Positions 2,531 to 20,485 of a stretch of 64,000 nucleotides of DNA are shown here, in pieces. A program made the position numbers and the translations under genes. Each line of letters starts with the position of its first letter. The first letter of the stretch is position 1. Source of the DNA: Collinsella aerofaciens (GTDB lineage: Bacteria; Actinomycetota; Coriobacteriia; Coriobacteriales; Coriobacteriaceae); NCBI GenBank assembly GCA_052344885.1, contig DAWDYI010000002.1:1546-65545 (forward strand), in the 5' to 3' direction. The notes under the pieces were generated by a model that was not told the origin of the DNA, did no database searches, and saw nothing but the letters and a program-made list of their open reading frames with translations.

Positions 2531-2656
2531 TTCTCCTCCTTCATTCCTTTTCCCATCTATCCAGCTGGCACCATAAATGTATGAGGTTGCTCAGCGTTGG
2601 TCGGCCAACCATCGCCATCGTGTCGCTTTTCACCTATGAACGGCAGCTAAAGTGAC

Positions 2657-2700
2657 GTTATTAATCAATCTGATTTTTAAAATTGATGTTATTTATCAAT
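2657..2700. promoter_or_regulatory. AT-rich direct and inverted repeats in the divergent arc promoter region (candidate operator)
   Basis: GTTATTAATCAAT (2657-2669) and GTTATTTATCAAT (2688-2700) are 31 bp apart. ATCAAT (2664-2669) and ATTGAT (2682-2687) form an inverted repeat between them. The site lies between the carrier gene (minus) and the second ADI (plus). Confidence 0.3.
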
Positions 2701-2783
2701 TACATACGTCTTTTAACTTTTCCGCAACACAACAAGGAACCTGCCTTAGCCTTATATAAAAACCAGCAGGACAGGAGACAGAC

Positions 2784-4034: not shown

Positions 4035-4036
4035 CC

Positions 4037-4693: not shown

Positions 4694-4753
4694 ATCGACT
4701 TTCCCAAAAACGACCGTACCGCACAGACAGCTCAAGGCCCCAGCCCAAATGAA

Positions 4754-5335: not shown

Positions 5336-5339
5336 CTCC

Positions 5340-5906
5340 TCACCCAAAAAAGCGCACGCCAAAGGACGTATCCTCGCAGGCGACAATGCGGCGGTCGCGC
5401 AAAATGGTCCGCACGTAATACCAATCGCCCACACAACCCGACAAATGCAAGCCGGCCGCCAGGTAGCACAGCAGCGGATAGCCCGAGAACGCAAATCCCA
5501 GGGCAAACGCCGCCGTCACAACAACCGTCGGCGCCAGGCAAACCGCCATGTACCGCCGGCGCGAATACACAACGCCCTCGGCGCAGGCATAGATCATCGC
5601 CGTCTCGCGATTCGCCCCAAAGGTCACCTTCGCGCCCGCAGGCGCCAGCAGCTTAAAAAACACACCGTGCACCAGCTCGTGCACGGCGAACGACGCCATT
5701 GAGATCGCAGCCAAGCCGACTATCCAGCCCACGACAGCCATCCAGCCGCCCGCGTCAGCCGCATCCAAGTCCGCAGGCCCACCCAGCAGCATAAACACCG
5801 GCACCAAGCACACGGCAAACACGCCGACTACGACCATCCCCCACACGAAGCAAGCGTGCAGAAAATCCTCGTCCTCAAACGCATGTATGTTGGAAATCTC
5901 ATTCAT
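5340..5906 (-). CDS. DUF3267-like membrane protein (putative zincin, HExxH)
   Basis: 188 aa with several TM helices and a HELVH motif. Its stop is 4 nt upstream of the queH start. Confidence 0.55.
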   Translation of the reverse strand: MNEISNIHAFEDEDFLHACFVWGMVVVGVFAVCLVPVFMLLGGPADLDAADAGGWMAVVGWIVGLAAISMASFAVHELVHGVFFKLLAPAGAKVTFGANRETAMIYACAEGVVYSRRRYMAVCLAPTVVVTAAFALGFAFSGYPLLCYLAAGLHLSGCVGDWYYVRTILRDRRIVACEDTSFGVRFFG

Positions 5907-6038
5907 AGCATCTTAGGATAGCGCCCCTGCCACGTACCCGTCCGCATGTGCGATAATGTCGAACGATATGCACGAATTGACCACCGCGTCGCCAAGCCTT
6001 GCGCCCGGCCGCGCTCTCACCATATGCGAAGGAGTCCC

Positions 6039-8189
6039 ATGGCATCAAAATACTCCATGAACGACCGTCCCAGCTGGCCTCGCCGCGCCATCGTTACCGC
6101 CGGCGAGCCCTACGGCAACAAGGGCCTTCACTTTGGCCACGTCGGCGGCGTCTTTGTCCCGGCCGACTTCTTCGCCCGCTTCCTGCGCGACCGTCTGGGC
6201 CGCGAGAACGTCATCTTCACCTCGGGCACCGACTGCTACGGCTCGCCCATCATGGAGAGCTACCGCAAGCTCAAGGAGAACGAGGGCTACGACAAGTCCA
6301 TTAACGAGTACGTCGAGTCCAATCACTCCCGCCAAGCAGCGACCCTCAACAACTACAACATCAGCTGCGATATCTACGGCGGCTCGGGCCTTGAGCCGGC
6401 TGCGCAGATTCACAACGAAGTGACCGCCGAGATTATCGAGCGCCTGCATGAGCAGGGCACCATCTCCAAGCGCTCCACGCTGCAGTTCTACGACGCCAAG
6501 GCCGACACGTTCCTCAACGGCCGCCAAGTGATCGGCCGCTGCCCCATCCAGGGCTGCAAGTCCGAGAAGGCCTATGCCGACGAGTGCGACCTGGGTCACC
6601 AGTTTGAGCCCGAGGAGCTCATCGCACCCAAGAGCCAGCTCACCGGCGAGGTGCCCGAGCTGCGCCCGGTCGACAACCTCTACTTCGACCTGCCGGCCTA
6701 CCTCGACTTTATGAAGACCTACACCGCCAAGCTCGCCCAGAACCCGCAGGTTCGTTCCGTGGTCTCCAAGACCATGGAGGAGTGGCTGCTGCCGGCCCAG
6801 CTCTATATCCAAAACAAGTTCCGCGAGGCCTTCGATGCCGTCGAGGACCAGCTGCCCGAGCACACCGTGCTGGAGCCCGAGGGAAACAAGAGCAGCTTTA
6901 CCGTCACCTTCCCCAGCTGGAAGGAGCGCGACGACGCCCATGCGGTGCTCGCCAACGGCGGCGTGCGCTTCCGCAGCGGCAAAGCGCTCGTGCCTTTCCG
7001 CATCACCGGCAACATCGACTGGGGCGTTCCGGTGCCCCAGGTCGACGGCGTTTCCGACGTCACCTGCTGGTGCTGGCCAGAGAGCCTGTGGGCGCCCATC
7101 AGCTATACGCGTACCGTGCTCGCGCGCGATGCCAAGGCCGCCGGCGTGACCGAGGGCGTCGCCGCCCAGGATGCCGCCCTCATGGGCGAGCCCGCTGCCG
7201 ACTCCACACAGGTGCCCGCGCCCACCTACCAGCACAGCTCGCTCGACTGGCGCGACTGGTGGTGCTCGGACGACGCACAGATCTACCAGTTTATCGGTCA
7301 GGACAACATCTACTTCTACTGCATCGCGCAGACCGCCATGTGGGAGGCCCTGGGCTGGGACCTCACGCAGAGCACCGTCAGCGCCTGCTACCACCTGCTC
7401 TACATGGGCAAAAAGGCCAGCTCGTCCTCGCAGACGCCTCCCCCGCCGGCAGACGACCTACTCAACCACTACACCTGCGAGCAGATGCGCGCGCACTGGC
7501 TGTCGCTCGGCCTGTCCGAAAAGCCGGTGAGCTTTAGCCCCAAGGCATACGACACGCGTGTGACCGGCAAGGACAAGGACGGCAACGAGGTGCGCGCCTG
7601 CGACGACAAGCGCGTTATCGATCCGGCCCTTAAGGAGAGCGCCCTTTTGACCGGCGTATTCAACCGTCTGGCCCGCAGCTGCTTCTACGGCGTCGCCGTC
7701 AAGGAAGGCGACGAGAGCCCCTATCGCAACGGCTGCATCCCCGCCGGTGCCGCCTCTGCCGCCGTGGTCGAGGCTGCCGAGCAGGCAGCTCTTGCCTTTG
7801 AGCAGGCCATGTACAAGTTCGAGACGCACCGCGCGCTTGCCGTGTGCGACGACTACCTGCGCGCCGCCAACAAGCGCTGGAGCGACGCCTCCAAGGCCGC
7901 CAACAAGCTCGAGGGCGACGAAGCAAACGCAGCGATGACGCAGGCCCTGGTTGATGCCTTTACCGAGCTGCGCGTGGCGACCGTCCTGATGCACGGTATC
8001 GTCCCGGCCGGCTGCGAACTCATCTGCGAGTACTTCGACGTCGATCCGGTCGCCTTCTTTAGCTGGGATAACATCTTTGCCTCCACGGACGAGTTCGTAG
8101 AGAGCCTGGGCGAGAAGCCCGGCGACCACCGCGTGAAGCCGCTGCCCCCGCGCTTCGACTTCTTCAGCAAGCACGAGAGCCAGTACTAA
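6039..8189 (+). CDS. metG: Class I aminoacyl-tRNA synthetase, methionyl-tRNA-synthetase-like
   Basis: ATG at 6039 follows GAAGGAG. Features: HIGH-type motif (GLHFGH), a MetRS-like zinc knuckle (CPIQGCKSEKAYADECDLGH), WAPISYT and FIGQDNIYFY segments. The KMSKS position reads KKASS (7410-7424). Confidence 0.65.
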   Translation: MASKYSMNDRPSWPRRAIVTAGEPYGNKGLHFGHVGGVFVPADFFARFLRDRLGRENVIFTSGTDCYGSPIMESYRKLKENEGYDKSINEYVESNHSRQAATLNNYNISCDIYGGSGLEPAAQIHNEVTAEIIERLHEQGTISKRSTLQFYDAKADTFLNGRQVIGRCPIQGCKSEKAYADECDLGHQFEPEELIAPKSQLTGEVPELRPVDNLYFDLPAYLDFMKTYTAKLAQNPQVRSVVSKTMEEWLLPAQLYIQNKFREAFDAVEDQLPEHTVLEPEGNKSSFTVTFPSWKERDDAHAVLANGGVRFRSGKALVPFRITGNIDWGVPVPQVDGVSDVTCWCWPESLWAPISYTRTVLARDAKAAGVTEGVAAQDAALMGEPAADSTQVPAPTYQHSSLDWRDWWCSDDAQIYQFIGQDNIYFYCIAQTAMWEALGWDLTQSTVSACYHLLYMGKKASSSSQTPPPPADDLLNHYTCEQMRAHWLSLGLSEKPVSFSPKAYDTRVTGKDKDGNEVRACDDKRVIDPALKESALLTGVFNRLARSCFYGVAVKEGDESPYRNGCIPAGAASAAVVEAAEQAALAFEQAMYKFETHRALAVCDDYLRAANKRWSDASKAANKLEGDEANAAMTQALVDAFTELRVATVLMHGIVPAGCELICEYFDVDPVAFFSWDNIFASTDEFVESLGEKPGDHRVKPLPPRFDFFSKHESQY

Positions 8190-8213
8190 AGCACGCTAGT
8201 AGCAACGCGCCCG

Positions 8214-8327
8214 GGAATGATTATTCTGGGACGGGGATTAAAAAATCATTCCCGGGCGCCACAGTACAGTCTTTTTGTGACGGGAGTCATGGAATGATTA
8301 TTTAATCCCCGTCCCAGAATAATCATT
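8214..8327. repeat. Two inverted copies of a 37-39 bp hairpin-forming unit (REP/BIME-like pair)
   Basis: Copy 1 is at 8214-8252 (GGAATGATTATTCTGGGACGGGGATTAAAAAATCATTCC). Copy 2 is at 8291-8327 in reverse orientation with one difference. 27-bp perfect arms lie at 8216-8242 and 8301-8327. A competing 16-bp perfect hairpin lies at 8207-8222 / 8244-8259. Confidence 0.8.
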
Positions 8328-8346
8328 TAGGTGGAAGGAAAGACGG

Positions 8347-9450
8347 ATGTCCAAGCAGCGTCGTCGTAAGCAGAAAAAGCAGGTTAAGCCCGAGCTCAAG
8401 CTCAGGCAGTTTGCCGCTACCGAGCTTTCCGACCAGCTTGCCGCCCTTCCCTGCGCCGCCGACCTGCCGCGCTTTATGGTCGACACGGTCGCCGGCGCCT
8501 ATGCGCCCGCCGATGCCGAGCTCATGATCGAGGGCTTCGGCGCCGCGGCCACACGCCCGGTCACGCTGCGCGCCAACACGCTCAAGGCGACCGCCGAGGA
8601 CATCGCTGCGGCGCTCGGTGCCGCCGGCATCGCCCACAACCCCGTCGCTTGGTATCCGGACGCCTTTATCCTGCCCGAGGCCCAGGTTTCCGACCTATGG
8701 GACCTCGACATCTACCGCGACGGCAAGATCTACCTACAGAGCCTGTCGTCCATGATGCCGCCTTTGGTGTTGGGCGCCCAGGCAGGCGAGGACATCCTGG
8801 ACATGTGCGCAGCCCCTGGCGGCAAGACGACGCAGATCGCCGCCCTCACCCAGGGCCAGGCACACCTCACGGCCTGCGAGATGAGCATTCCCCGCGCCGA
8901 AAAGCTTGAGTCCAACCTCCACCGCCAAGGTGCCAAAAACGTGCCCGTCATGCGCATCGACGCACGCGAGCTCGACGAGTTCTTCCGCTTTGACCGCATC
9001 CTGCTCGACGCTCCCTGCACCGGCACGGGCACCGTCATCAGTGGCAACGAGAAAAGCCTGCGCGGCCTCACCGAGCAGCTGCTCGTCAAGTGCGCCCGCT
9101 CGCAGCGCGCGCTTCTGGACCGCGCCATGGGAGCCCTCAAACCGGGCGGCACGCTCGTCTATTCCACCTGTTCGATCATGCCGCAGGAAAACGAGGACGC
9201 CCTGCAAGAGGCCCTCGACAAGCACATGGATTGCGAGCTTATCCCCCTCGACGGCACACCGAGCGAAAGTGAAGCGCGTCGCGCCCAGGATGCCGGCGAG
9301 GAGCCGCATATCGAGTGCAACGCCCTCACCGAGGCCATCGCCGCCGGCCATGTCTCGGCCATCGCCAACGGTATGCCCGGCACGCTGACCATTCCGCCTA
9401 GCCGCGATTTTGAGGGCTTCTACATTGCCCTGATCCGAAAACGCAGCTAG
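8347..9450 (+). CDS. NOP2/Sun (RsmB/RsmF-type) RNA cytosine-C5 methyltransferase
   Basis: SAM site DMCAAPGGKTTQIA. Catalytic motifs LLDAPCTGTGT and YSTCSIMPQENE. Confidence 0.85.
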   Translation: MSKQRRRKQKKQVKPELKLRQFAATELSDQLAALPCAADLPRFMVDTVAGAYAPADAELMIEGFGAAATRPVTLRANTLKATAEDIAAALGAAGIAHNPVAWYPDAFILPEAQVSDLWDLDIYRDGKIYLQSLSSMMPPLVLGAQAGEDILDMCAAPGGKTTQIAALTQGQAHLTACEMSIPRAEKLESNLHRQGAKNVPVMRIDARELDEFFRFDRILLDAPCTGTGTVISGNEKSLRGLTEQLLVKCARSQRALLDRAMGALKPGGTLVYSTCSIMPQENEDALQEALDKHMDCELIPLDGTPSESEARRAQDAGEEPHIECNALTEAIAAGHVSAIANGMPGTLTIPPSRDFEGFYIALIRKRS

Positions 9451-9474
9451 CGCACGGATCAAAAACTCAACAAG

Positions 9475-9645
9475 CTATCTCTGTGCGCGTTTGCCCTGCT
9501 GGTCGCGATGCTGTTTAAGCATCGCGCGCTCCTTGCGTTCGGCCCTTTTGCCCTTAATGGCCGTGACCACAAAGTAGATGACCGCGGCGGCAACGATTGC
9601 GCCCACGCACAGGCCAATCGAGCCAAACATTGCTGTCAATTCCAT
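9475..9645 (-). CDS. Small membrane protein (56 aa), hypothetical
   Basis: Below the 60-aa track cut-off. My translation: MELTAMFGSIGLCVGAIVAAAVIYFVVTAIKGKRAERKERAMLKQHRDQQGKRAQR. One TM helix plus a basic tail. GAGAGGTG lies about 7 nt upstream of the ATG. Confidence 0.4.
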   Translation of the reverse strand: MELTAMFGSIGLCVGAIVAAAVIYFVVTAIKGKRAERKERAMLKQHRDQQGKRAQR

Positions 9646-9836
9646 ACCGCGTCACCTCTCTTTTAAACGGGACTTTCAAGATAGCACCTCGATCCTCGCC
9701 ACCACAGCTCCTTCACGTTCTCCCGCCCTTCGGTCTAACGGATGGTGCGGCGGGGAAAAATCAACTCGTCAAACGATTTAGCATTCGCAATTCCGGCTGC
9801 ATCGCGCCGGCCACCATCGCATAGAATCGAGCCTCC

Positions 9837-10928
9837 ATGGATACCCTCAACGACCTAAACGAACGCGTCGACGCCTTTGTCGGCACCAGCTCCTTCGACA
9901 CGCCTGCCGCGGCAAACGACCAAGCTCCCATCGATGTACCCGCCGAGGTTCACGAGGACATCGTCGCCTCGGTCGATTTCTCCGAGGTCGAGCTCGCAGA
10001 CGAGTTCACCGAGCCCCAGGTAGCCGTGACCCCCAACGGACTGCTCTCCATGGAGCCCCTGCCCATCGACGGACGTCTGCGCAAGGCTGCTCTTCGCATG
10101 CCCGACGAGATCGAGGAGGCCAGCGGCTTCACGCTCTTCGGCCGCCGCATCAAGTCGCTCATTTACACCACCGATGTCGCGGTTATCCGCAACTCCAACG
10201 CCGATGCCGTTTTTGCGGTCTACCCTTTCACGCCGCAGCCCGCCATTACGCAAGCGCTGCTGACCGTCGCCGAGTGCCCGGTCTTTGTAGGCGTGGGCGG
10301 CGGAACTACGACCGGTAAGCGCTCCGTGCAGATGGCAGCCGTCTCCGAGATGCAGGGCGCGGCGGGCTGCGTGGTCAACTCCCCCGCCACTGCCGAGATG
10401 GTCGAGCACATCACCAACATCGCCGACATCCCCGTCATCGCCACGGTCGTTCGCTGCGACGACGATGCTCACGCCAAGGTGCGCGCCGGAGCCAAGATTC
10501 TCAACATCGCCGCCGGCAAGAACACGCCCCAGGTCCTACGCGAGCTGCGCGAGCACTATCCCAACCTGCCGCTCATCGCACCGGGCGGCAAGACGCCCGA
10601 GAGCATCCGTGAAACCATCGCCGCCGGAGCCAACGCCATCATCTGGACGCCGCCTTCGGCCCAGCAGCTACAGACCGACATGATGCAGCGTTATCGCAAG
10701 ATGAAGGAAGACGCCACACCTGTCATCTCGCGCGACGATGTGCCCATTATCGACCAGGTCGCCGCCGCCGAGGTCAGCCAAGTCGAGAACATGAATCCCG
10801 ACGTGCCGATTCCCGACGAAGTCATCGAGCGCGTCGCTTCGATCCACGAGCGCGTCGAGGAGCATCGCGCCAATCGCGGCCTCAAGCCATCACTGCACGG
10901 CTTCTTCTTCCGCGGAAAGAAACGCTAG
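9837..10928 (+). CDS. Hypothetical protein (acidic N-terminus plus a possible TIM-barrel-like core)
   Basis: 363 aa with high-GC codon usage. The central alternating beta/alpha pattern (VFVGVGGG..., IPVIATV..., LIAPGG...) suggests a barrel fold. I recognise no family. Confidence 0.55.
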   Translation: MDTLNDLNERVDAFVGTSSFDTPAAANDQAPIDVPAEVHEDIVASVDFSEVELADEFTEPQVAVTPNGLLSMEPLPIDGRLRKAALRMPDEIEEASGFTLFGRRIKSLIYTTDVAVIRNSNADAVFAVYPFTPQPAITQALLTVAECPVFVGVGGGTTTGKRSVQMAAVSEMQGAAGCVVNSPATAEMVEHITNIADIPVIATVVRCDDDAHAKVRAGAKILNIAAGKNTPQVLRELREHYPNLPLIAPGGKTPESIRETIAAGANAIIWTPPSAQQLQTDMMQRYRKMKEDATPVISRDDVPIIDQVAAAEVSQVENMNPDVPIPDEVIERVASIHERVEEHRANRGLKPSLHGFFFRGKKR

Positions 10929-10940
10929 CCGCAACAGCAA

Positions 10941-10976
10941 GGCCCGCCCCACAAACGTGAGGCGGGCCGTTTTCGC
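10941..10976 (+). terminator. Rho-independent terminator
   Basis: GGCCCGCC (10941-10948) pairs with GGCGGGCC (10961-10968), followed by GTTTTCGCTT. It lies between two convergent genes. Confidence 0.7.
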
Positions 10977-11009
10977 TTGAACAAACATGCAGCGACGTGA
11001 TGGGGCAAA

Positions 11010-11900
11010 TTAATCCACGCGCTTGTCGCCCATAAAGAAGAGCGCCACCGTACCAGGTCCGGTATGCGAGCCAATCAGAGTACCGATGTCATTGATCTCA
11101 ATCTTGCCTTTAAGCTGCGGAACCTGTTCCTCAATCAGCGCCGCAACTGCCTCGGCATCCTCGCGGCACGCCGAGTGCGACATGATGCACTTACCCGAAT
11201 AATCCGCACCGTCCTGCACGTGTGCCATCATGGTCTTAGCCATCTCGGAAATCGCGCGCTTCTTAGTGCGAATCTTCTCACGTGGCGACAGCTTGCCGTC
11301 GCAATCGACCGTCATAAGCGGGCAAATCTTAAGCGCCGTGCCGATGATCGCGCTCGCAGCCGAAATGCGACCGCCTCGTAGGTAGCTCGACAGATCGGTC
11401 GAGAAGAACCAGTGGTGCAGGTTGAGTTTGTGCTCCTCGATCCAGGCAGCCGTCTCGTCGAGTGAAGCCCCGCTATCGCGCACGTCGGCGGCATATTCCA
11501 GCAACAGGCCAAAGCCCGAAGACGCCGCCAGCGAATCGATGACGCGCACCTTGCCGCCCTCGGGATAGCGATCCGCAAGCATCTGCGCCGCGACGCAGGC
11601 CGATCCATACGTGCCCGAAATACCCGACGACAACGTCAGGTGCAGCACGTCTTTACCCTCGGCAACAAACGGCTCCCAAAACTCCTCGTACTCACCCACG
11701 CTCACCTGAGACGTCTTGGGCATGGCGCCCGCGGCAATCTGGGCAAAAAACTTGTCCGGCGTAATCGACTGATACAGATCGTCCGTATAGACAACATCGT
11801 CGATCTCGTAATGAAAATACGCGACAGGAATATTGCGCGAGTCAAAGAACTCCCGAGTTCGGTCGGCGGCAGATTCACAGGTCAGGACAAAATCACTCAT
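11010..11900 (-). CDS. DegV family fatty-acid-binding protein
   Basis: 296 aa. TCESAADRT..., LSSGISGTYGSA and IGSHTGPGTVALFF are typical DegV segments. Confidence 0.9.
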   Translation of the reverse strand: MSDFVLTCESAADRTREFFDSRNIPVAYFHYEIDDVVYTDDLYQSITPDKFFAQIAAGAMPKTSQVSVGEYEEFWEPFVAEGKDVLHLTLSSGISGTYGSACVAAQMLADRYPEGGKVRVIDSLAASSGFGLLLEYAADVRDSGASLDETAAWIEEHKLNLHHWFFSTDLSSYLRGGRISAASAIIGTALKICPLMTVDCDGKLSPREKIRTKKRAISEMAKTMMAHVQDGADYSGKCIMSHSACREDAEAVAALIEEQVPQLKGKIEINDIGTLIGSHTGPGTVALFFMGDKRVD

Positions 11901-12163
11901 ATGAGGCTCCTTACGTATTGCTGCGCAAATTATCGCACAGTGAGCCTACATACGGTACATATGTCCACTATTTACCAAATCGAACCAAAAATAGCGAACA
12001 TCTTTACCACCATCGTCTCCACCGACCCCACGCATAAATATCTGAGAAAACACCCTCTGTCGTCTCCACTCAACCGCCATATCTACCTCAACTAAATCGA
12101 TTTACCAAACCGTTCAGCCGACAATTCAGCCGCTGGCGCAAAATCGAAACAAAAGCGGCGCAT

Positions 12164-12193
12164 ACTGATAAACGTTTGACGCCGTTTATCAGT
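12164..12193. promoter_or_regulatory. Perfect 11-bp inverted repeat just upstream of fbp (operator or 5' UTR hairpin)
   Basis: ACTGATAAACG (12164-12174), an 8-nt spacer, then CGTTTATCAGT (12183-12193). It ends 27 nt before the fbp ATG. Confidence 0.35.
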
Positions 12194-12220
12194 TTTACCA
12201 GCCCCATCGGAAGGTGTTTC

Positions 12221-14137
12221 ATGGTCGCATTCGGTCGCAACCCGCAAGACTTCAAGTATCTGCGCCTGCTGTCGAGACAGTTCCCCACCGAACAATCCGC
12301 ATTTACCGAGATTATCAACCTCTCGGCCATCCTCAACCTACCCAAGGGCACCGAGCATTTTATGAGCGACGTGCACGGCGAGTACGAAGCCTTTATGCAC
12401 ATCCTCAACAACTGCTCGGGCGTCGTGCGCGAGCATGTCGACGAGATTTTTGGCGACACGCTCTCCTTTGACGAAAAGGGCGAGCTGTGCACGCTCATTT
12501 ACTACCCGCGCGAGAAGATTGAGCTGGTCCGCAGACAGCGCGAGGACTCGCCAACTTGGTACAAGACGATGCTTGACCAGCTCATCATGGTCGCTCGCTC
12601 GCTTTCAAGCCGCTACACGCGCTCCAAGGTGCGTAAGGCCATCCCGCGCGACTACGCCTATATCATCGACGAGTTGTTGCACACGCACCCGGACGAGAAC
12701 AACTATCGCGTGCGCTATCACGAGCGCATCGTGGAGTCCATCCTGGAGACCGCCAGCGCCGACGACTTTATCGAGTCGCTCGCTTCGCTCATCAAGCGCC
12801 TGGCCGTCGACCACCTGCACCTGGTGGGCGATATCTTCGACCGTGGCGGCGGCGCTGCCAAGATTATGGACCGCCTGCTCACCTATCATTCGCTCGACAT
12901 CCAGTGGGGCAACCACGACCTGCTGTGGATGGGCGCTGCGGCCGGTGAGCCTGCATGCATCGCCACGGTGCTGCGCAACAACCTGCGTTACGACAATTAC
13001 GAGATCCTCGAGAACGACTACGGCATCTCGCTGCGTGAGCTTGTCGCCTTCGCAGACGCCACCTATACCGCCGGTGAGTCCATCACCCCGCTGATCAAGG
13101 CCATCAACGTGCTGCTCTTTAAGCTTGAGGGCCAGATTATCCAGCGTCACCCCGAGTTCGACATGACCGACCGCCTGCTGCTCGACAAGATTGACCACGA
13201 CACCGGCACGGTCACGCTCGCCGACGGCAGCGTGTGGCCGCTCACGACCAACGACTTCCCTACCGTCGACCCGGCAGACCCCTATACGCTCACGCCCCAG
13301 GAGCAGCACATCATCGACAAGCTCGTGTCCGAGTTTGTCACCGCCGATCACCTGCATCGCCATATCGATTTCCTCTATTCCCACGGCTCGATGTACAAGG
13401 TCGCCAACGGCAACCTGCTCTTCCACGGCTGCGTTCCGCTCAACGAAGACGGCACCTTTAGCAGCATGAACTGTCTGGGCACCTGGCACGCCGGGCGCGA
13501 TTATCTCGATTTTTGCGACCACATCGCCCGCCGCGCCTGGCGCGTGGGCGACCGCGACGCCCTCGACTGGATGTGGTACCTGTGGATTGGCTTTAACTCA
13601 CCCGCCAGCGGACGCCTGGTGCGTACCTTTGAGCGCGCCTATATCGCCGATAAGAGCACCTGGGTCGAGCCGATGGACCCGTACTTTACGCTTACCAAGT
13701 CGCCCTCGGTCTGCGATGACATCATGCGCGAGTTTGGCGTCGCGGCCATGGCATGCTCGCCGACCGGCCACATCATCAACGGCCACACGCCCGTTAAAAC
13801 CACCAAGGGTGAGCAGCCCATCCGCGCCGAGGGCAAGCTACTGGTCATCGATGGCGGCTTCTGCCGCGCTTACCATCCCAAGACGGGTATCGCCGGCTAT
13901 ACGCTCATCTCGAGCTCGCGCGGCTGCCGCCTCAAGTCGCACCGGGCCTTTACGACGGTTGCCGAGGCACTCACGCGCAACGTGGACATCGAGAGCGAGA
14001 CCAACCGTTTTGACCAAGCAGACCGTCGCCGCATGGTGAGCGACACCGATACTGGCGCCAAGATTCGCAGCCAGATCCAGGACCTGCGCCAGCTGCTCGA
14101 TGCATATAGAAACGGTGCTATCGAGGAGCGCGCCTAG
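12221..14137 (+). CDS. fbp: Fructose-1,6-bisphosphatase, class 3
   Basis: YLRLLSRQFPTEQSAFTEIINLSAILNLPKGTEHFMSDVHGEYEAF is the hallmark class-3 FBPase N-terminus. ATG at 12221 follows GGAAGG. Confidence 0.9.
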   Translation: MVAFGRNPQDFKYLRLLSRQFPTEQSAFTEIINLSAILNLPKGTEHFMSDVHGEYEAFMHILNNCSGVVREHVDEIFGDTLSFDEKGELCTLIYYPREKIELVRRQREDSPTWYKTMLDQLIMVARSLSSRYTRSKVRKAIPRDYAYIIDELLHTHPDENNYRVRYHERIVESILETASADDFIESLASLIKRLAVDHLHLVGDIFDRGGGAAKIMDRLLTYHSLDIQWGNHDLLWMGAAAGEPACIATVLRNNLRYDNYEILENDYGISLRELVAFADATYTAGESITPLIKAINVLLFKLEGQIIQRHPEFDMTDRLLLDKIDHDTGTVTLADGSVWPLTTNDFPTVDPADPYTLTPQEQHIIDKLVSEFVTADHLHRHIDFLYSHGSMYKVANGNLLFHGCVPLNEDGTFSSMNCLGTWHAGRDYLDFCDHIARRAWRVGDRDALDWMWYLWIGFNSPASGRLVRTFERAYIADKSTWVEPMDPYFTLTKSPSVCDDIMREFGVAAMACSPTGHIINGHTPVKTTKGEQPIRAEGKLLVIDGGFCRAYHPKTGIAGYTLISSSRGCRLKSHRAFTTVAEALTRNVDIESETNRFDQADRRRMVSDTDTGAKIRSQIQDLRQLLDAYRNGAIEERA

Positions 14138-14215
14138 CACCACCCGCGGGGATTGGCTAAACTTGCTAAGTTTGTCATCCCCGCGGCGCTTCGGCGCCAG
14201 CTTAAGGCAGGTACC

Positions 14216-14611
14216 ATGCAAAAGCTCCTTGCGCAGATTATGAAATTTGGCGTCGTCGGTGTCATTGCCACGGTTATCGACTTTGGCATTATGAATCTGC
14301 TCCACTACGGTCTGGGCCTCAACATCCTAATCGCCAACACCAGCGGCTTTATCATCTCACTCATCTTTAACTACCTCGCAAGCATGAAATACGTGTTTGC
14401 GCACAAGGAAGGCATGAGCCGCCGCCGCGAGTTCATCATCTTTGTCGTGCTGTCCGTGATCGGTTTGGTGCTCAACGATGGCATCGTGCTGGCGCTCAAC
14501 GCCGGCCTGGGACTCGAGGCCAATATCGCCAAGATCTGTGCCACCGCGCTTGTCATGGTCTACAACTTTGTGACCCGAAAAATCTTCCTGGAGGGCGACG
14601 AGACAAAATAG
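14216..14611 (+). CDS. GtrA family membrane protein
   Basis: MQKLLAQIMKFGVVGVIATVIDFG... and NYLASMKYVF. The track ORF starts at a TTG at 14153; I prefer the ATG at 14216. Confidence 0.8.
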   Translation: MQKLLAQIMKFGVVGVIATVIDFGIMNLLHYGLGLNILIANTSGFIISLIFNYLASMKYVFAHKEGMSRRREFIIFVVLSVIGLVLNDGIVLALNAGLGLEANIAKICATALVMVYNFVTRKIFLEGDETK

Positions 14612-14830
14612 CTCGAAACCCCTGTAGCATTACGGCGCCCACGGACGACGCGCACTCAGCGCAGTATCGTCCGTGGGTGTCGCTCGTTTACGGGCAAATT
14701 TTCAACGTTTGCGGATTAGCTCTTGAAAATTTGGCGAGTTCATATAGTTCTTGGCAAAGACCTTACGTTTCCCTTGTAAAAGCTCTAAAGTATCCTCTGC
14801 TCGATTCATCAACGCATTGGATGTGATTAC

Positions 14831-15238
14831 GTGCGCAAGGCGCTGGCACAACCTCATACCAAGCAGTTCCTCAAGTTTGCCGTCGTGGGTCTTATCTCCT
14901 TTGGCATCGACTGGGGCATGCTCATTGCGCTCGTCGAGCTGTTCCACCTCGACTTTTTGATGAGCACCACGGTTTCGTTTATCACGTCCGTCGTGGTCAA
15001 CTACTGGCTCAGCATGAAGTACGTGTTCGACCACCGCGAAGGCATGAGCCGCAAGCGCGAGTTCACGATCTTCACCATCCTGTCGGTGATCGGCCTGGGC
15101 CTCAACGACCTGTACATGTTTGTGGGCGTCACGTTTTTGAGCATCGGCTACCAGGCCATGAAGGCCATCGCCACATTCCTCGTCACCTGGTACAACTACT
15201 TCAGCCGCCGCTTCTTCCTCGAGGGCGCACGGTCGTAG
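14831..15238 (+). CDS. GtrA family membrane protein (paralog)
   Basis: GTG start. FLKFAVVGLISFGIDWG... and NYWLSMKYVFDHREGMSRKREF, clearly a paralog of the preceding gene. Confidence 0.8.
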   Translation: MRKALAQPHTKQFLKFAVVGLISFGIDWGMLIALVELFHLDFLMSTTVSFITSVVVNYWLSMKYVFDHREGMSRKREFTIFTILSVIGLGLNDLYMFVGVTFLSIGYQAMKAIATFLVTWYNYFSRRFFLEGARS

Positions 15239-15264
15239 TCGATTCACTATTTGCTTGAATGTAT

Positions 15265-15299
15265 AACCGGTTGGAATTCCCGTTCCAACCGGTTTTTTT
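15265..15299 (+). terminator. Rho-independent terminator
   Basis: 12-bp perfect stem: AACCGGTTGGAA (15265-15276) with TTCCAACCGGTT (15283-15294), followed by a T7 run. Confidence 0.85.
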
Positions 15300-15337
15300 G
15301 TTTGCCGAGAGACCCGGCGATCCAGTCCCATTCGCAT

Positions 15338-15377
15338 GAAAAACGGGCGGCTCGGATGTTGGTCCGAACCGCCCGTC
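15338..15377 (-). terminator. Rho-independent terminator closing the DUF4430 operon
   Basis: 14-bp stem with one mismatch (15343-15356 with 15364-15377). On the minus strand it is followed by TTTTT (complement of 15338-15342). Confidence 0.75.
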
Positions 15378-15398
15378 TGGCGCGCTATGTCGAGGCCT

Positions 15399-16310
15399 CT
15401 AGTCTGTAACGTAATACCAGACTACGTTGTCGCCGTTTGAGAGAACGTAGTTACTACAGGCCGTCATGGGCGTTGTGCCGTTGACGGAATACATCCAGCC
15501 GCTCGTGCCGCCGTACTGTTTCTCGGCCAAACCACCAATCGCAGAAACATACGTGCCGTACGATGAGCCGTGTGCGTTGACAGAAAGGCCCAGCGCGCAC
15601 AGGGCATCGTAAACGGTAGCGCCTTCGTTAAAGGTAAAGGTGCCGCCAGAGGACACAGGATTGCCCACAGCGCTCGATGTGACCGAAACCGTCACCGTAA
15701 CGTAGCTGGACTCCTGTGAGCCGCCCTGTCCGCCCGAGGGAGCACTTCCGCCATAGGAGCTGGAGGCTCCATCAGACGACTGACCGCCTCCCGAAGAAGC
15801 ACCGCCAGACACATTGGAAGTATCACCGGCTCCCGTATTTTGGGCAGCGGATTTATCGCCAGACTTCTTGCCGCCCCGGTCCTCGGACTTCTTGCTATCC
15901 GAGTTTTTGTCCGATTCCTTGTTTGAAGACTCGGAATCGTCCTTGGCGTCGTTCGAACCCTTGGGCTCGTCTTTTGCATCATTCGAAGATTTGGAATCCT
16001 TGGAACTAGCCTCGCCCGAAGCGGCAGACGAGCCAGACCCCTTGGTGTCCTTGGCGACGACGCTCTCCCCCGTCACGGTCTGAACGATCCAGTCAATGGA
16101 CCAGGCGCCGCTCTCGGAAGGATGAACGAAGCCCAGCGAGACGACGATCAGAATGGTGCACGCGGCAGCAAGAACGCCAAGGAGCGCCTTGCGACGAGAG
16201 GCGGACGCCGCCAAAGCGGCGCCCTGTTGCTTTGCATCGTCGAACTGAATGAACGAGGAATCTGGTTGCTTGGGGTCAGCGTCCTTGGATTTATTGGACA
16301 CAACCCTCAC
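15399..16310 (-). CDS. Membrane-anchored DUF4430 (transcobalamin-like C-terminal domain) protein
   Basis: N-terminal TM helix (LLGVLAAACTILIVVSLGF), a Lys/Asp/Ser-rich spacer, then a canonical DUF4430 domain (ATVYDAL...SGWMYSVNG...NGDNVVWYYV). Its GTG start abuts the stop of the upstream gene. Confidence 0.8.
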   Translation of the reverse strand: MRVVSNKSKDADPKQPDSSFIQFDDAKQQGAALAASASRRKALLGVLAAACTILIVVSLGFVHPSESGAWSIDWIVQTVTGESVVAKDTKGSGSSAASGEASSKDSKSSNDAKDEPKGSNDAKDDSESSNKESDKNSDSKKSEDRGGKKSGDKSAAQNTGAGDTSNVSGGASSGGGQSSDGASSSYGGSAPSGGQGGSQESSYVTVTVSVTSSAVGNPVSSGGTFTFNEGATVYDALCALGLSVNAHGSSYGTYVSAIGGLAEKQYGGTSGWMYSVNGTTPMTACSNYVLSNGDNVVWYYVTD

Positions 16311-19300
16311 CTACCGACGTTTGGTGAACACGAACACGCCGACGATGGCGAGGCCAATCACGCCGGCGGCGATGCCAACGATGGCGAGCGGATTGGTGCC
16401 AGTCTCCTGCTCGGAAGCACTAGAGGACTTCTTAGCAGTGGTCGTGGAAACAGCACCCGTATCGGACTTGGAATCGGACTTCTTGTCGGACTTGCCGTCC
16501 TTCCTGTCAGACTTCTTGTCAGACTTCTTCTCGTCCTTCTTATCGGACTTATCGGAGTCCTTCTTGCTGGGCTTGTTGTCCTTGGTCTCGGTCTTGGTCG
16601 ACACCGTCGTCTTGGTCATCGGCTTATGACCCGGAGCGACAGCGCCGCCAGCCTGCTGGCCCTTCGTGCCGGAGCCGGAACCCGTGCCCGTGCCAGCGCC
16701 AGCACCGGAACCGTTGCCAGCGCCACCATTGCCGCCATTGGAGCCAGAACCGCCATTGCCGCCAGGGTTAACAGCATTCTTGGTCCACTTGGCATACGGC
16801 GTCAGATCGGCCGTCACCGGCGTACTGAAGTCATACGCCTGCGCGCAAGTCTCATCGGTATACCAACCGCCGAAAGTGTAGCCATCGCGCGTCGGATCGG
16901 CTGGCTTGACCAGCTTGCCATCGGCCGTAGCAACAAACTTAGTATTGCAAGCAGACCCGCCGTTGGAATTAAAGACAACCGTCCAAGACTCAACGGCCCC
17001 AAGCTTGAACAGCGTGCCCGAGTCATTGATGTAGTACAGGTTGCCAGATGCATCGGCAATGACCGGAGAGTCACAGTGCTGGTAATGGCCAGCCGCATCA
17101 TAAATCTGCGTCGCCTCTGCATCACCGAGCGTATAGCGATACACGCCACCACCAGCAGAGTAGTTGACGTAATCCTTGCTATCCGCGCTGTTAACGGTGA
17201 AGTACACATAGGTCTTGCCACCCTGAACACTCACCAGCGGAGTAGCAGCAATACCGTTAAATCCGGCCGGCAGTTCTTTACCGTCAGCAGCGGTGACCAT
17301 CGTGGTCTTACCGGTCTTCAGATTATAGAGAGCCAGAGCAGAGCCAGTAGCCGTCTGTCCGCCGACAATCAAGTTTTCGCCAGCCACCGCCGGTGCGCTC
17401 ATGTTATTAGTAAGACCCAGGTCGACCGTCTTCTGCTCGCTCAGTACGCCCTTCGCCGAAAGCGAAATCACATGGAGCTTTCCATCGTGCGTCATCTGAT
17501 AGAAGGTGGAACCATTGGACGGATCGGCGACACAGTCGGCGTTCGCGAGAGCGCCGAGCTTCATGGTCGAAACGACATCGCCCGTCGTCTTATCAATGCA
17601 CTTAAGCGTGCCCGCGCTCGTAGGAACGATGGCATACTTATCCGTCAAAGCCGCACCAGTCCAGTAATAACCCTCGGAAGCGTCAATGTTCTGCCAAGAA
17701 ACTTCGCCCGTGGCAATCTTAATGCGCATAAAGGAGCCGTTGCCGTAGGTCGCGTTGTAATTCTCGTCATACGAAATATCGACCGTACCAACATAGACGT
17801 ACTCGCCGTCCGAAACGACGGTGCAGGAGCTCTGCGTCAAGTCCGTCAAACCGGGCGTCAGCCACTTGCAGATCAGCTTGTCTGCAGTAATCGCCTGGAC
17901 CGCACCGCCGTTGAGCGGAACGATGATAAGGCCATTGGTGTAGATCGGACGAGAGGTATAACTCACCTTGGAGGCAAGCGGCGCAGAGGCAACCTTTTTG
18001 CCCGTGGACGAATCGATCTTAATGAGCTCGTTCTCGGTCGCGATGTACACAAAGCCGTTAGCGATGACAGGCTCGCTGCAGTTGGCATACTGCTGACCAG
18101 ACTCGGCCTTCCAATCGAAGGCCCACTTAAGACCGGCGGCCTGCGCAGGCGTCTTGGCATCCGTTACGGTCGAACCGTTGCCACTGTTGCCGTAGCCGGC
18201 CCACTCGGCATCCCAATCAGGAGTCGTCGCGCTCGGGTCCACGACAATCTTGTCGGGATCGGGCATGGCCGAATCGTCGGTGGTATAGGCAAGCGTAACC
18301 TTATCGCCGCTCTTGAGCGTAATCTGATTGGCGCAGAGTAAGGAGGGCTCTCCGTTGATATACAGGTGCCAATATTTATTGGTCGCAGCATCCCAGGCAT
18401 ACGGCTTGTGATCGAACGGCGAGTTGATGGAATTGAGGAACCAGTACTCACCACTCTGGGAGCCGTTGTACGTAACGCCCTTGGCCTTCAGGACCGTCTC
18501 AATAAGGTTCTGAGCCGTAGAGCCCTCGGGCAGGGAAACATTGCTTGCCGAGCCCCAGCGAGTATTGTTGCCGTTGACATCGGGACCGATAACATCGACA
18601 GACCCAAGAACCTGGCCAGGAAGGGCATCGGCGTCAGCACCATACATAAAGGTGACGGCATCGCCCTCTTGGAGCTCATAGGCACCGGCGCCAACGTCGG
18701 CGAACTTGCCATTTACATAGAAGCGCCAATAGCTATTAGTCGCAGCATCCCAGCCATAGGACTTACTATCGAACGGCGAAGTAATGCCGTTGAGGAACCA
18801 GCCCCAAGACGATTCGCCAGCATCGAGAGTAAGACCGGTCTGCTCAAGGAGATCCTTGGCAGTAGAGCCCGCCTTGAGACTCGTCTGGCCCGTCGAAGCC
18901 CAAACCTGCTGCTTGCCGTCCTTGTCCTTACCAAGGACCTGAACGGAAGCATGGACGGAATCGGACGGCAACTTATCGCCCCAGCCACCGTAGAACCACG
19001 TAACGGTATCGCCAGCATGAATGGTGACATTGTCTGCCGTGTAGTCGCTCGACTTGCCGTTGATGAACAGCTGCCAATAGGTCGAATAATCTTGGGGCGT
19101 ACCCAGCTCAACACCGTTGTACTTAAGGCTCAGAATGAAGGAGCCAGCAGCAACGGCGTCGATGTCATTCGCCTCAAGCGCGACCTTCGTAAGGTCAAGT
19201 GCGCTCGAACCGGACGTCACCACATACTGCGCGTTATCGACCCAAGTCTGAGTCTTGCCCTGGGCATCGCGACCAATGACGGTCACATTTGCGGCAACCT

Positions 19301-20105
19301 GGTCCTTAACGACAGGGGACGAGCTACCAGCCGTATAGGCAAACTCAACCTTCTGCCCCTGGGTGAGCTTAACGCTGCTCGCGCCAACCGAGGAAGACGC
19401 ACCGTCGACGAACAGCTGCCAGAAGGCATAAGTCGTCGGATCGAAGGCAAGCGTACGGCCATCGCTCGGGGATGTGATGCTTTTGAGGTAGAAACCGTAT
19501 GCCGTGTTCGGATCGTAGTCTGCCTTGAAGCCCGTCTTCTGCTGCAGCTTAACGAAGGCATCCGCAGCCGTCGCGCCCTCGTCGAGCTTGAGCTGCGTGG
19601 GTGCCACCCAGGTCTGAGCCTTGCCGTCGGCATCGGTGCCGATAATCGAGAACGAGACCTCGACTTGCTTCTTGGCGACATCGCCGGTTTCTGTCGGGTT
19701 CTCTGTCTGAACGGCAGCCGCGGCGGCAGATCCTGCTTGGCCAGCGGATGCCGCTGAAGACTGCTCGCTCGCGGCAGGGCTCTCCCCCGTCGCCGAGCCT
19801 TCGTCGCCAGTTGCTGCCTTTGATGCGGCGGCACTAGCTGCAGGCGCGCTCCCAGAATCCGAAACCTCGGCGCCGCTCTGCTCAGCGGCACCGCCCGCAA
19901 GCGCTGCGTCCTCGCCCGGCGTCGTAGCCTGAGCCACAGCCTCGGCAATGCCCTCGGCGCCCTCGGCCCACAGCTGAGCCGGCGTGGTGCTGAAGGCCAT
20001 CGCGAAGGCCAGGAATGCCACCAGGCAGCGCTTTGCCACGCCGCGCGCGATTACGCCACGGCGACGAAGCGAGGCACGCTGGCACTCGTCCTCAAACATA
20101 TCCAT
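16311..20105 (-). CDS. Giant surface protein: signal peptide, 4x DUF4430-like repeats, beta-propeller-like region, Flg_new repeat, low-complexity stalk, C-terminal TM anchor
   Basis: Start taken at the ATG at 20105 (AGGAGA 5 nt upstream; MDMFEDE...CLVAFLAFAMAFSTTPAQLWA). The repeats span nt 18282-19664 (YWQLFINGKSS..GDTVTWFYG and similar). A PQQ-like propeller pattern follows. Flg_new segment: WTVVFNSNGG...GYTFGGWYTD...YAKWT. The protein ends ...IAAGVIGLAIVGVFVFTKRR. Confidence 0.85.
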   Translation of the reverse strand: MDMFEDECQRASLRRRGVIARGVAKRCLVAFLAFAMAFSTTPAQLWAEGAEGIAEAVAQATTPGEDAALAGGAAEQSGAEVSDSGSAPAASAAASKAATGDEGSATGESPAASEQSSAASAGQAGSAAAAAVQTENPTETGDVAKKQVEVSFSIIGTDADGKAQTWVAPTQLKLDEGATAADAFVKLQQKTGFKADYDPNTAYGFYLKSITSPSDGRTLAFDPTTYAFWQLFVDGASSSVGASSVKLTQGQKVEFAYTAGSSSPVVKDQVAANVTVIGRDAQGKTQTWVDNAQYVVTSGSSALDLTKVALEANDIDAVAAGSFILSLKYNGVELGTPQDYSTYWQLFINGKSSDYTADNVTIHAGDTVTWFYGGWGDKLPSDSVHASVQVLGKDKDGKQQVWASTGQTSLKAGSTAKDLLEQTGLTLDAGESSWGWFLNGITSPFDSKSYGWDAATNSYWRFYVNGKFADVGAGAYELQEGDAVTFMYGADADALPGQVLGSVDVIGPDVNGNNTRWGSASNVSLPEGSTAQNLIETVLKAKGVTYNGSQSGEYWFLNSINSPFDHKPYAWDAATNKYWHLYINGEPSLLCANQITLKSGDKVTLAYTTDDSAMPDPDKIVVDPSATTPDWDAEWAGYGNSGNGSTVTDAKTPAQAAGLKWAFDWKAESGQQYANCSEPVIANGFVYIATENELIKIDSSTGKKVASAPLASKVSYTSRPIYTNGLIIVPLNGGAVQAITADKLICKWLTPGLTDLTQSSCTVVSDGEYVYVGTVDISYDENYNATYGNGSFMRIKIATGEVSWQNIDASEGYYWTGAALTDKYAIVPTSAGTLKCIDKTTGDVVSTMKLGALANADCVADPSNGSTFYQMTHDGKLHVISLSAKGVLSEQKTVDLGLTNNMSAPAVAGENLIVGGQTATGSALALYNLKTGKTTMVTAADGKELPAGFNGIAATPLVSVQGGKTYVYFTVNSADSKDYVNYSAGGGVYRYTLGDAEATQIYDAAGHYQHCDSPVIADASGNLYYINDSGTLFKLGAVESWTVVFNSNGGSACNTKFVATADGKLVKPADPTRDGYTFGGWYTDETCAQAYDFSTPVTADLTPYAKWTKNAVNPGGNGGSGSNGGNGGAGNGSGAGAGTGTGSGSGTKGQQAGGAVAPGHKPMTKTTVSTKTETKDNKPSKKDSDKSDKKDEKKSDKKSDRKDGKSDKKSDSKSDTGAVSTTTAKKSSSASEQETGTNPLAIVGIAAGVIGLAIVGVFVFTKRR

Positions 20106-20249
20106 TTGTCTCCTATTGTCTGTACTTGGAGCGTTGCCTTGAAGCTGCCCCACGTCATCGCGCATGTTGCGCCCGAGTTCCCCCATCGGGGTCCCCCTTC
20201 CCTCCAGAGCCCTATGCACACCGGCGGCATACGCCGCAGCCGCATGCAA

Positions 20250-20420
20250 GATGGGAGGCGATCCGACTTAACCTTAACGGCTCAGGCGCGCCGTCCGATC
20301 TGCGACGCGAACATCCCGAGCCAAGAGGAATTACGGTTACTGGTACAGCCGGGGACTTGCACCCCGATTCCCCCAAACGCGCAGGAAAACCGCGCATTCG
20401 TGCGTCTCCGCACCACCATC
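20250..20420 (-). promoter_or_regulatory. Cobalamin (B12) riboswitch aptamer (RF00174-like)
   Basis: Minus-strand RNA core: GGGGGAAUCGGGGUGCAAGUCCCCGGCUGUACCAGUAACCGUAA (plus coordinates 20331-20375). B12-box-like element AAGUCGGAUCGCCUCCC at 20253-20269. Candidate P1 is GAUGG (20416-20420) with CCAUC (20250-20254). It lies in the leader of the 16311-20105 gene. Boundaries are approximate. Confidence 0.8.
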
Positions 20421-20456
20421 TAGGCCATCGATTAAAACCGTCAATATGCTATCACG

Positions 20457-20485
20457 CAAAAGGGCCTCGCACGCAGGCGAAGCCC
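20457..20485 (-). terminator. Rho-independent terminator after the UbiB-family gene
   Basis: Minus-strand GGGCUUCGC-CUGCGU-GCGAGGCCC (one G-U pair) followed by UUUUG. Confidence 0.7.

Follow-up and report, generated by a model that had tools for sequence, protein, structure and literature searches.

The window analysed here, a 64,000-nucleotide stretch of Collinsella aerofaciens DNA, contains on its minus strand a two-gene unit that is predicted to encode a surface system for the capture of corrinoids. The unit is bounded by the terminator-like hairpin (20462-20485) of a UbiB-like gene and, at its 3' end, by a strong intrinsic terminator, and consists of a leader of about 315 nucleotides, gene 1 (16311-20105) and gene 2 (15399-16310). 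Sequence comparisons and structural models point, with a probability of roughly 0.7, to a vitamin-B12-regulated cell-surface corrinoid-capture apparatus. Coordinates are those of the window, and all features of the unit are on the minus strand.

Gene 1 encodes a predicted surface protein of 1264 amino acids, or of 1291 if translation starts at ATG 20186; an AGGAG Shine-Dalgarno sequence lies 5 nucleotides ahead of ATG 20105. The first 47 amino acids (19965-20105) resemble a signal peptide, with a basic n-region, the hydrophobic core CLVAFLAFAMAF and, as judged by eye, a likely cleavage site after LWA. Inspection of the sequence near this site revealed no lipobox cysteine. An Ala/Ser/Glu linker separates the signal peptide from four tandem DUF4430 modules (18273-19670), which are followed by a beta-propeller (16986-18260, amino acids 616-1040), a Flg_new or Listeria-Bacteroides repeat domain (16788-16982, amino acids 1042-1106), and a stalk with its anchor (16314-16787). 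The Flg_new domain scores 71 bits with PF09479, is also assigned to TIGR02543 and matches the internalin B repeat with an E value of 2.5e-4. The stalk is of low complexity, first Gly/Ser and then Lys/Asp/Ser, and leads to a C-terminal transmembrane (TM) helix (16326-16391) and a TKRR tail. This arrangement agrees with the initial annotation of the locus, which had described a signal peptide and Ala/Ser linker, four DUF4430 repeats, about 380 amino acids of PQQ-like propeller, one Flg_new repeat, stalks and a TM helix ending in KRR.

No LPXTG motif was found in the tail of the gene 1 protein (..SEQETGTNPLAIVG..) or in the 42 homologue tails examined, and a sortase LPXTG anchor was ruled out for gene 1 on both counts. 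The homologue tails end in the same TM helix and basic tail, often after NP(L/W)A or P(I/V)WP. The propeller protein of one related locus with transporter genes (L083; 8700-8893, plus strand) ends in an LPSTG sortase signal, and since the Collinsella-type proteins carry a plain TM anchor, lineages differ in how these proteins are attached to the surface.

The four DUF4430 modules, delimited by repeat alignment, comprise amino acids 146-258 (R1, 19332-19670), 268-375 (R2, 18981-19304), 383-493 (R3, 18627-18959) and 499-611 (R4, 18273-18611). Pfam family PF14478 matches gene 1 in four stretches with a total of 155 bits, against a cutoff of 23.8. The AlphaFold2 model of R4 has a predicted local distance difference test score (pLDDT) of 94 and a predicted template-modelling score (pTM) of 0.86. 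Its 19 matches in the Protein Data Bank (PDB) with E <= 0.001 are the beta domains of transcobalamin, haptocorrin and intrinsic factor, together with the bacterial structure 3U7Z. The alignments with the beta domains of the three carriers cover about 114 columns, with TMq values of 0.66-0.72, root-mean-square deviations of 2.6-3.6 A and identities of 13-19%. The next matches after these carriers and 3U7Z are generic ubiquitin-like folds with E values 40-fold worse. The initial annotation had expected the repeats to superpose on the beta domain of transcobalamin and intrinsic factor, and in the R4 model the beta-grasp, including its clade-specific hairpin insert, does superpose on that of transcobalamin.

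Sequence comparison leads to two of these carriers. A phmmer search of PDB sequences with the whole gene 1 protein recovered the internalin Flg_new repeat only, and haptocorrin and transcobalamin came up only with a profile built from the repeats; the two best matches of this profile are the haptocorrin beta domain (E 0.013) and the transcobalamin beta domain. The motifs GxY(L/I)xSI and YWxL..G...GAGSY are common to the repeats and to haptocorrin and transcobalamin, and occupy the cofactor-facing strands and hairpin. In the PDB carriers, the repeat profile and the model match the beta domain alone. As modelled, the repeats have the transcobalamin beta-domain fold.

Structure 3U7Z, from Ruminococcus gnavus (RUMGNA_00854), is the sole solved bacterial structure among the DUF4430 fold matches and was deposited under the label 'putative metal binding protein'; it may represent a corrinoid-binding domain that has gone unrecognised. 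A search of the literature yielded no experimental report of B12 binding by any bacterial DUF4430 protein.

The propeller, about 425 amino acids in length, is the family-defining domain of gene 1 and, on its AlphaFold2 model (pLDDT 92.2, pTM 0.92), is probably eight-bladed and BamB/PQQ-like. In the PDB it most resembles BamB, tetrathionate hydrolase, PQQ dehydrogenases, and designed propellers of eight to ten blades including Cake8 (TMt 0.82). Foldseek E values reach 4e-15, and TM-scores to BamB and PQQ enzymes are 0.6-0.8. The Pfam assignments suggested in the initial annotation held for PF14478 and Flg_new; the propeller scores 30.4 bits with PF13570 against a cutoff of 133 and has no PF13360 match in the window protein, a family that its homologues do reach. 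The model thus places the propeller in a fold class shared with BamB and PQQ proteins, of whose sequence families it is a putative member. The same annotation had proposed a comparison with BtuG, which binds corrinoids on a propeller face. No BtuG was found among the best 50 PDB matches of the model, and a BtuG-like propeller was rejected, as the closest folds are the eight-bladed BamB/PQQ propellers and BtuG2 is seven-bladed (PMC10404256); the parallel with BtuG is one of analogy only.

A homologue search covering 1.8 billion representative proteins found the propeller in 66 of the 150 best. Relatives of gene 1 in the databases number more than 2800, and the best 120 are at least 90% identical to it over the full length and have the same Pfam content. 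The propeller segment is 100% identical to that of NZ_SPFY01000031, and all 80 related loci found by a propeller-profile search of genome contigs belong to the C. aerofaciens complex (96-100% identity). The full gene 1 frame of more than 1250 codons is retained in 68 loci of this complex. Chance is ruled out for the protein domains by their scores. In seven of about 75 loci of the complex (including L001, L010, L027, L032 and L054) the frame is closed by an in-frame stop inside the DUF4430 repeat region, and many database entries are products of 590-636 amino acids with propeller and Flg_new only (clusters P0296, P0308 and P0328), one of them on 33 contigs. These interrupted frames may reflect differences between strains, with the gene disrupted or the repeat array varied, or else indel and collapse errors in the assembly of tandem repeats.

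Gene 2 encodes a protein of 303 amino acids. Its N-terminus is basic and is followed by a TM helix (16125-16190), after which a stalk of Ser, Lys, Asp and Gly leads to the C-terminal DUF4430 domain (15402-15701). This domain matches PF14478 over amino acids 230-301 with 68.4 bits, against the same cutoff of 23.8, and is 56-61% identical to DUF4430 proteins encoded beside transporter genes at the related loci described below. The start codon, GTG 16310, adjoins the stop codon of gene 1, and an alternative GTG at 16301 lies behind GGTGAGGG. The layout predicted from the sequence is that of a type II membrane-anchored protein with its domain outside the cell, and the initial annotation had the position of the gene, its N-terminal TM anchor, its stalk and its single DUF4430 domain right. 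The unit is closed by an intrinsic terminator (15337-15378), a 16-bp stem (15341-15378) followed by UUUUU, with a folding energy (dG) of -35.2 kcal/mol and a z-score of -5.55; the initial annotation had placed a strong terminator at 15338-15377.

The leader contains an element of about 20250-20421 that is organised as a cobalamin riboswitch aptamer: a P1 helix (AGAUGG/CCAUCU), a GGU..GCC pairing, a GNRA-capped P2, P3, the conserved core GGGAAUCGGGGUGCAAGUCCCCGGCUGUACCAGUAACCGUAA, a two-hairpin peripheral extension and the B12-box-like AAGUCGGAUCGCC. A riboswitch core and a B12-box-like element had been proposed at 20420-20250, and both are present. The initial annotation had also held that its reading would fail if the RNA scored below threshold with an RF00174-type model, and the score does fall short: AdoCbl-II (RF01689, clan CL00101) matches 20285-20373 with 32.9 bits, below the gathering score of 36.5, and the match is a local one to model positions 17-72 of 81. 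This match was obtained in a permissive scan that searched 651 nucleotides of leader, in which a lower-scoring member of the clan was suppressed; its E value of 7.5e-6 becomes about 7e-4 when rescaled to the full window.

With no Rfam score above threshold, the riboswitch call rests on comparative evidence. The element is kept on the coding strand in all 72 loci of the C. aerofaciens complex whose contig reaches the leader. These loci, with their identity of 96-100%, are too similar for deep covariation, and diverged loci were found through contigs encoding homologous proteins. In the 5' leaders of homologous genes, sub-threshold AdoCbl-II matches were found on the sense strand at L087 (30.2 bits), L092 (30.6), L083 (34.5) and L090 (25.9), that of L083 covering the full length of the model. 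The RNAalifold consensus of 32 distinct sequences has the classical cobalamin layout, with P1, GGU/GCC, GNRA-capped P2, P3, the core hairpin, a CCG/CGG pairing between core and B12 box, and the two-hairpin extension. The core and AAGUCGGAUCGCC are invariant or almost so, and the CCG/CGG pairing (alignment columns 129-131 with 201-203) is kept in 32 of 32 sequences. Compensatory double changes occur in 17 of the 53 consensus pairs, in an alignment that consists mostly of close relatives and draws these changes mainly from L083, L089, L090, L087, L092 and L076. For example, P1 changes from AGAUGG/CCAUCU in the window to GGUGGA/UCUACC in L090, and a G-C pair of the extension helix in the window is replaced by A-U in L087. 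Paired cells amount to 98.5%, compared with 36-44% when the partners are slid, and none of 500 shuffles reached the observed values. Chance is ruled out for the RNA by its recurrence and covariation. From these alignments we conclude that the leader holds a true cobalamin riboswitch whose subtype obtains low scores with the Rfam models.

The expression platform lies between the aptamer and the start codon (20106-20249), a segment that comprises a GC hairpin, a G-rich Shine-Dalgarno-like motif GGAGGGAAGGGGG (20193-20205), an in-frame ATG at 20186 and the AGGAG Shine-Dalgarno sequence (20110-20114). Since a terminator scan found no terminator-like site between aptamer and start codon, the platform looks translational. 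The motif GGAGGGAAGGGGG and its ATG (20184-20205) are located 27 codons upstream of ATG 20105 and may, to judge from the sequence, be a second start or a piece of the expression platform; the latter is thinkable because GGAGGGAAGGGGG is partially complementary to CCUCC in the 3' strand of P1. In L083 and L090 the same G-rich motif with ATG comes right after the aptamer and there represents the start codon. For gene 1, ATG 20186 was judged less likely as the true start: the 27 extra codons, counted from leader sequences, vary mostly non-synonymously among Collinsella relatives, and most listed orthologue lengths (1233-1302 amino acids) cluster near the 1264 amino acids that follow from ATG 20105. 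The latter is, from this evidence, the likelier start.

Two DUF4430 modules with a propeller, with or without Flg_new, constitute a widespread conserved module, found at 35-52% identity (over single aligned stretches) in proteins of 650-3200 amino acids. A protein 39% identical to gene 1 (P0167) has the same layout throughout, from the signal peptide by way of four DUF4430 stretches (as assigned by Pfam), the propeller and Flg_new to the TM anchor. At all nine related loci examined, as in the window, a TM-anchored DUF4430 gene lies directly 3' of the propeller gene. At L081, L083, L085, L089 and L093 the two genes open a five-gene operon with the order propeller, DUF4430, EcfT (CbiQ-like), fused EcfA-A' and EcfS, the last three being components of an energy-coupling factor (ECF) transporter. 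The S component of these loci matches ECF-CbrT (PDB 6FNP chain A) over its full length with an E value of 2e-6. At L083 the same riboswitch type heads the entire ECF operon. At L089 (8417-9711, minus strand; 10001-15642, plus strand) the ECF operon has no detectable riboswitch of its own and divergently adjoins a riboswitch-led operon; the neighbouring riboswitch scores 40.3 bits with AdoCbl-II, above the Rfam gathering score, and the operon that it leads encodes URO-D/MtaA-like methyltransferases, CobW, a B12-binding corrinoid protein and RACo.

Loci L087, L091 and L092 are syntenic with the window, with UbiB upstream (where the contig reaches it) and GtrA-like and FBPase genes downstream. 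ECF genes were not found directly downstream of the pair at these three loci or in the window, where the terminator follows gene 2. By this comparison of sequences, the missing transporter is a peculiarity of the Collinsella lineage and the pair serves elsewhere as accessory to an ECF importer. Within the Collinsella lineage it appears to have been detached from the transporter genes, and gene 1 to have gained N-terminal tandem DUF4430 modules, four here, with a far larger protein in L087. The L087 open reading frame (2392-12154, plus strand) lies behind the same riboswitch in a Collinsella-like metagenome-assembled genome, is 3212 amino acids long, and contains by Pfam three Flg_new stretches, aBig_2, three DUF4430 stretches and propeller matches. 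As gene callers registered no more than the final 717 amino acids of it, databases under-report the size range of the family.

These observations can be assembled into the following mechanism. High intracellular cobalamin would be bound by the leader riboswitch and lower expression, as is usual for OFF switches of this family; when B12 is scarce, both proteins would be made and exported. The gene 1 protein, held by its C-terminal membrane helix and long stalk, would show four DUF4430 modules and the propeller beyond the wall, and the gene 2 protein, held by its N-terminal helix and stalk, would show a fifth DUF4430 module. The modules may bind corrinoids through the transcobalamin-type beta-grasp face and the hairpin insert. 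The propeller is most likely a second binding surface, or else a docking or hand-off partner; that it completes the binding site or mediates hand-off is suggested by the invariable partnership of propeller and DUF4430. As part of the binding site it would mirror the toroid of transcobalamin or the separate toroid protein of the Lactobacillus sakei ECF operon. From the gene 2 protein, which would sit close to the membrane, the cofactor probably moves on to the importer, a CbrT-like ECF transporter that is encoded directly downstream in relatives and would be encoded elsewhere in Collinsella. A more detailed proposal, offered tentatively, is a bipartite corrinoid clamp made up of a DUF4430 module and the eight-bladed propeller, with the latter in place of the alpha6/alpha6 toroid of transcobalamin. 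Such a clamp would be a third independent solution beside transcobalamin and BtuG, possibly multiplied in Collinsella into a multivalent, riboswitch-repressed surface 'B12 sponge' that feeds a remote transporter or serves as a competitive reservoir.

The proposal of the initial annotation that the unit is a B12-regulated apparatus for corrinoid capture at the surface finds support in the comparative riboswitch evidence, the modelled fold, the predicted export and anchor signals, and the CbrT-like ECF operons of the orthologues; all six of the sequence observations in that annotation were confirmed. Capture outside the cell is the most likely function because relatives keep the same gene pair beside a B12 importer. 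A scavenging system would also be physiologically sensible, since B12 is reportedly required for the growth of C. aerofaciens, even though the species carries B12 synthesis genes (PMC6593275).

Several results weigh against this interpretation. The two-gene unit contains no transporter gene, as the initial annotation had already stated, and tblastn searches of the 64-kb window with the proteins that accompany the pair elsewhere found no homologue of ECF T, A or S. The 120 top-ranking relatives of the CbrT-like S component come from Eggerthellaceae and other Coriobacteriia and include no Collinsella, a result that does not imply absence from the genome. Pfam detected in gene 1 only DUF4430, Flg_new and the weak propeller match, and no transcobalamin alpha domain; in the mammalian protein the alpha domain supplies half of the binding site. 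For the RNA, the Rfam scan of the whole window at gathering threshold found no cobalamin family, the minimum-free-energy fold of the whole leader is undistinctive (z -1.35) and without a clear expression platform, and no riboswitch was detected at three of the ECF-linked relatives (L081, L085 and L093). Finally, heme has been proposed as the substrate of the related two-protein system of L. sakei (bioRxiv 864751).

Among the alternative explanations, the one that survives best is an extracellular corrinoid reservoir or a means of competitive sequestration, in which the five modules would hoard cobamides, starve competitors or buffer supply with no dedicated hand-off. The loss of the adjacent ECF genes in the Collinsella lineage and the multiplication of modules, to four in gene 1 and into the 3212-residue version of L087, fit such a role, and a preprint proposes one for the Bacteroides surface B12 binder BtuJ1 (bioRxiv 2025.07.01.662609). 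Orthologues of gene 2 are, however, integral to ECF import operons, and repression by B12 suits acquisition. A pure reservoir is rather unlikely, and reservoir and uptake roles are not mutually exclusive.

It is less probable again that a different tetrapyrrole serves as ligand in place of complete cobamides, for instance heme or a precursor or degradation product of corrins. The L. sakei ECF operon with its transcobalamin alpha-like and beta-like proteins has been tied to heme uptake (bioRxiv 864751), the 2007 prediction of this protein class allowed for 'B12 or its precursors' (PMC1796856), and C. aerofaciens, which has the synthesis genes and yet needs B12, is possibly a precursor auxotroph (PMC6593275). 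The unit is nevertheless headed by a cobalamin riboswitch and not by a heme or iron regulator, the S component linked to the pair resembles CbrT, a carrier of cobalamin and cobinamide, and the fold matches are to cobalamin carriers only.

A surface adhesin or structural protein of the wall, in which DUF4430, propeller and Flg_new would bind glycans or host molecules and the RNA would be incidental or otherwise regulatory, is still more improbable. Flg_new repeats and propellers are frequent in adhesins, many relatives are giant multi-repeat surface proteins, and tethering to polysaccharide by the fused domains has been suggested (PMC1796856), but an adhesin would leave the DUF4430 pairing, the ECF-CbrT-like operons and the presence of the riboswitch in five lineages unexplained. 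That the unit is a decaying, nonfunctional remnant of an ECF uptake operon, as the missing ECF genes, the interrupted frames of seven loci and the many truncated protein clusters might suggest, is hardly credible against the 68 full-length frames, the identity of at least 90% that the best 120 relatives show over the full length, the conserved riboswitch and terminator, and a lineage that has expanded gene 1 and not eroded it. B12 capture accounts for the riboswitch, the fold and the ECF-CbrT linkage jointly better than any of these alternatives.

The region upstream of the unit (20422-20485) comprises, besides the hairpin (20462-20485) of the UbiB-like gene, the unit's promoter region; the promoter and terminator scan reported no sigma-70-type promoter match on the minus strand. 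The neighbouring genes are UbiB-like, phasin-like, two GtrA-like and class 3 FBPase, none of which is a transporter; their names follow those at L087, which is syntenic, and in part NCBIfam. Between the terminator of the unit and the convergent GtrA-like gene (14831-15238) lies a perfect 13-bp palindromic hairpin with A and T runs on either side (15265-15294, both strands), which is probably the terminator of the GtrA-like gene and looks bidirectional. Elsewhere in the window, a full-length Collinsella-1 sRNA (RF01700; 32565-32761, minus strand; 221.9 bits) is the sole Rfam match at gathering threshold.

Competition for B12 and cobamides shapes gut communities, and C. aerofaciens is among the most prevalent actinobacteria of the human gut. 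To our knowledge, Bacteroides (BtuG, BtuH and BtuJ) is the only group in which extracellular B12 capture has been worked out at the molecular level; for Gram-positive bacteria we know only of membrane importers that have been characterised (ECF-CbrT and BtuFCD), and of no test of the surface proteins predicted in 2007. The locus and the ECF-linked operons provide a concrete and abundant test system for extracellular B12 capture by Gram-positive bacteria, with definite hypotheses on the parts that would bind, the part that would hand off and the switching of expression. If the bacterial domains do bind B12, this would support the proposal that animals obtained the transcobalamin beta domain from Gram-positive bacteria. 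The new elements are the riboswitch control, the conserved pair of propeller protein and anchored DUF4430 protein tied to a CbrT-like ECF transporter in Coriobacteriia, and the transporter-less, module-expanded variant of Collinsella. The initial annotation, which knew of no characterised example of the architecture of four modules, propeller and one further module, overstated its novelty: a 2007 study had already predicted surface transcobalamin-like proteins, a propeller fusion and pairs of paralogues (PMC1796856), and four DUF4430 modules with propeller and Flg_new occur together in P0167.

Among known systems, the proteins described by Burroughs, Balaji, Iyer and Aravind in 2007, who defined the SLBB superfamily, show a close likeness to the present unit (PMC1796856). 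These authors recognised a transcobalamin-like clade in Gram-positive bacteria with signal peptides and surface anchors, a beta-propeller fusion (exemplified in Clostridium), operons with a second SLBB paralogue, and linkage to CbiO/CbiQ, predicted a role in scavenging, and suggested that fused domains may tether the proteins to polysaccharide. The secreted or anchored beta-grasp domain of transcobalamin C-terminal type, the propeller fusion and the paralogue pair are shared with the proteins encoded here. The earlier study was purely computational, concerned Gram-positive bacteria of low GC content and mentioned no riboswitch, whereas here four tandem modules are fused to the propeller in an actinobacterium of the Coriobacteriia and ECF genes are absent from the locus.

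The mammalian carriers transcobalamin, haptocorrin and intrinsic factor share with each repeat the beta-domain fold, as modelled, and the motifs given above. Unlike these soluble two-domain carriers, gene 1 is without the alpha6/alpha6 toroid, and its modules are arranged in tandem and tethered to the membrane.

ECF-CbrT of Lactobacillus delbrueckii (PDB 6FNP) is a proven vitamin B12 importer that moves both cobalamin and cobinamide (PMC5997447). In five related loci the pair precedes EcfT, fused EcfA-A' and a CbrT-like S component; CbrT itself was studied without extracellular accessory proteins, and the window is without ECF genes. In L. sakei, Lsa1839 and Lsa1840, which are transcobalamin beta-like and alpha-like, respectively, are encoded in an ECF operon (bioRxiv 864751). 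Here too an extracellular DUF4430-type protein and a second secreted partner are encoded with a dedicated ECF transporter, but the partner is an alpha/alpha toroid and not a propeller, heme is the proposed substrate, and no riboswitch was described. Finally, the BtuG, BtuH and BtuJ1 proteins of Bacteroides offer an analogy, as they too are surface-exposed proteins of gut bacteria, encoded at B12 loci, that capture B12 ahead of the transporter. BtuH was rejected as the closest relative, for it belongs to DUF4465 and not to DUF4430. The Bacteroides proteins are of other folds and ancestry, and the Gram-positive system proposed here has no lipoprotein signal, outer membrane or BtuB.

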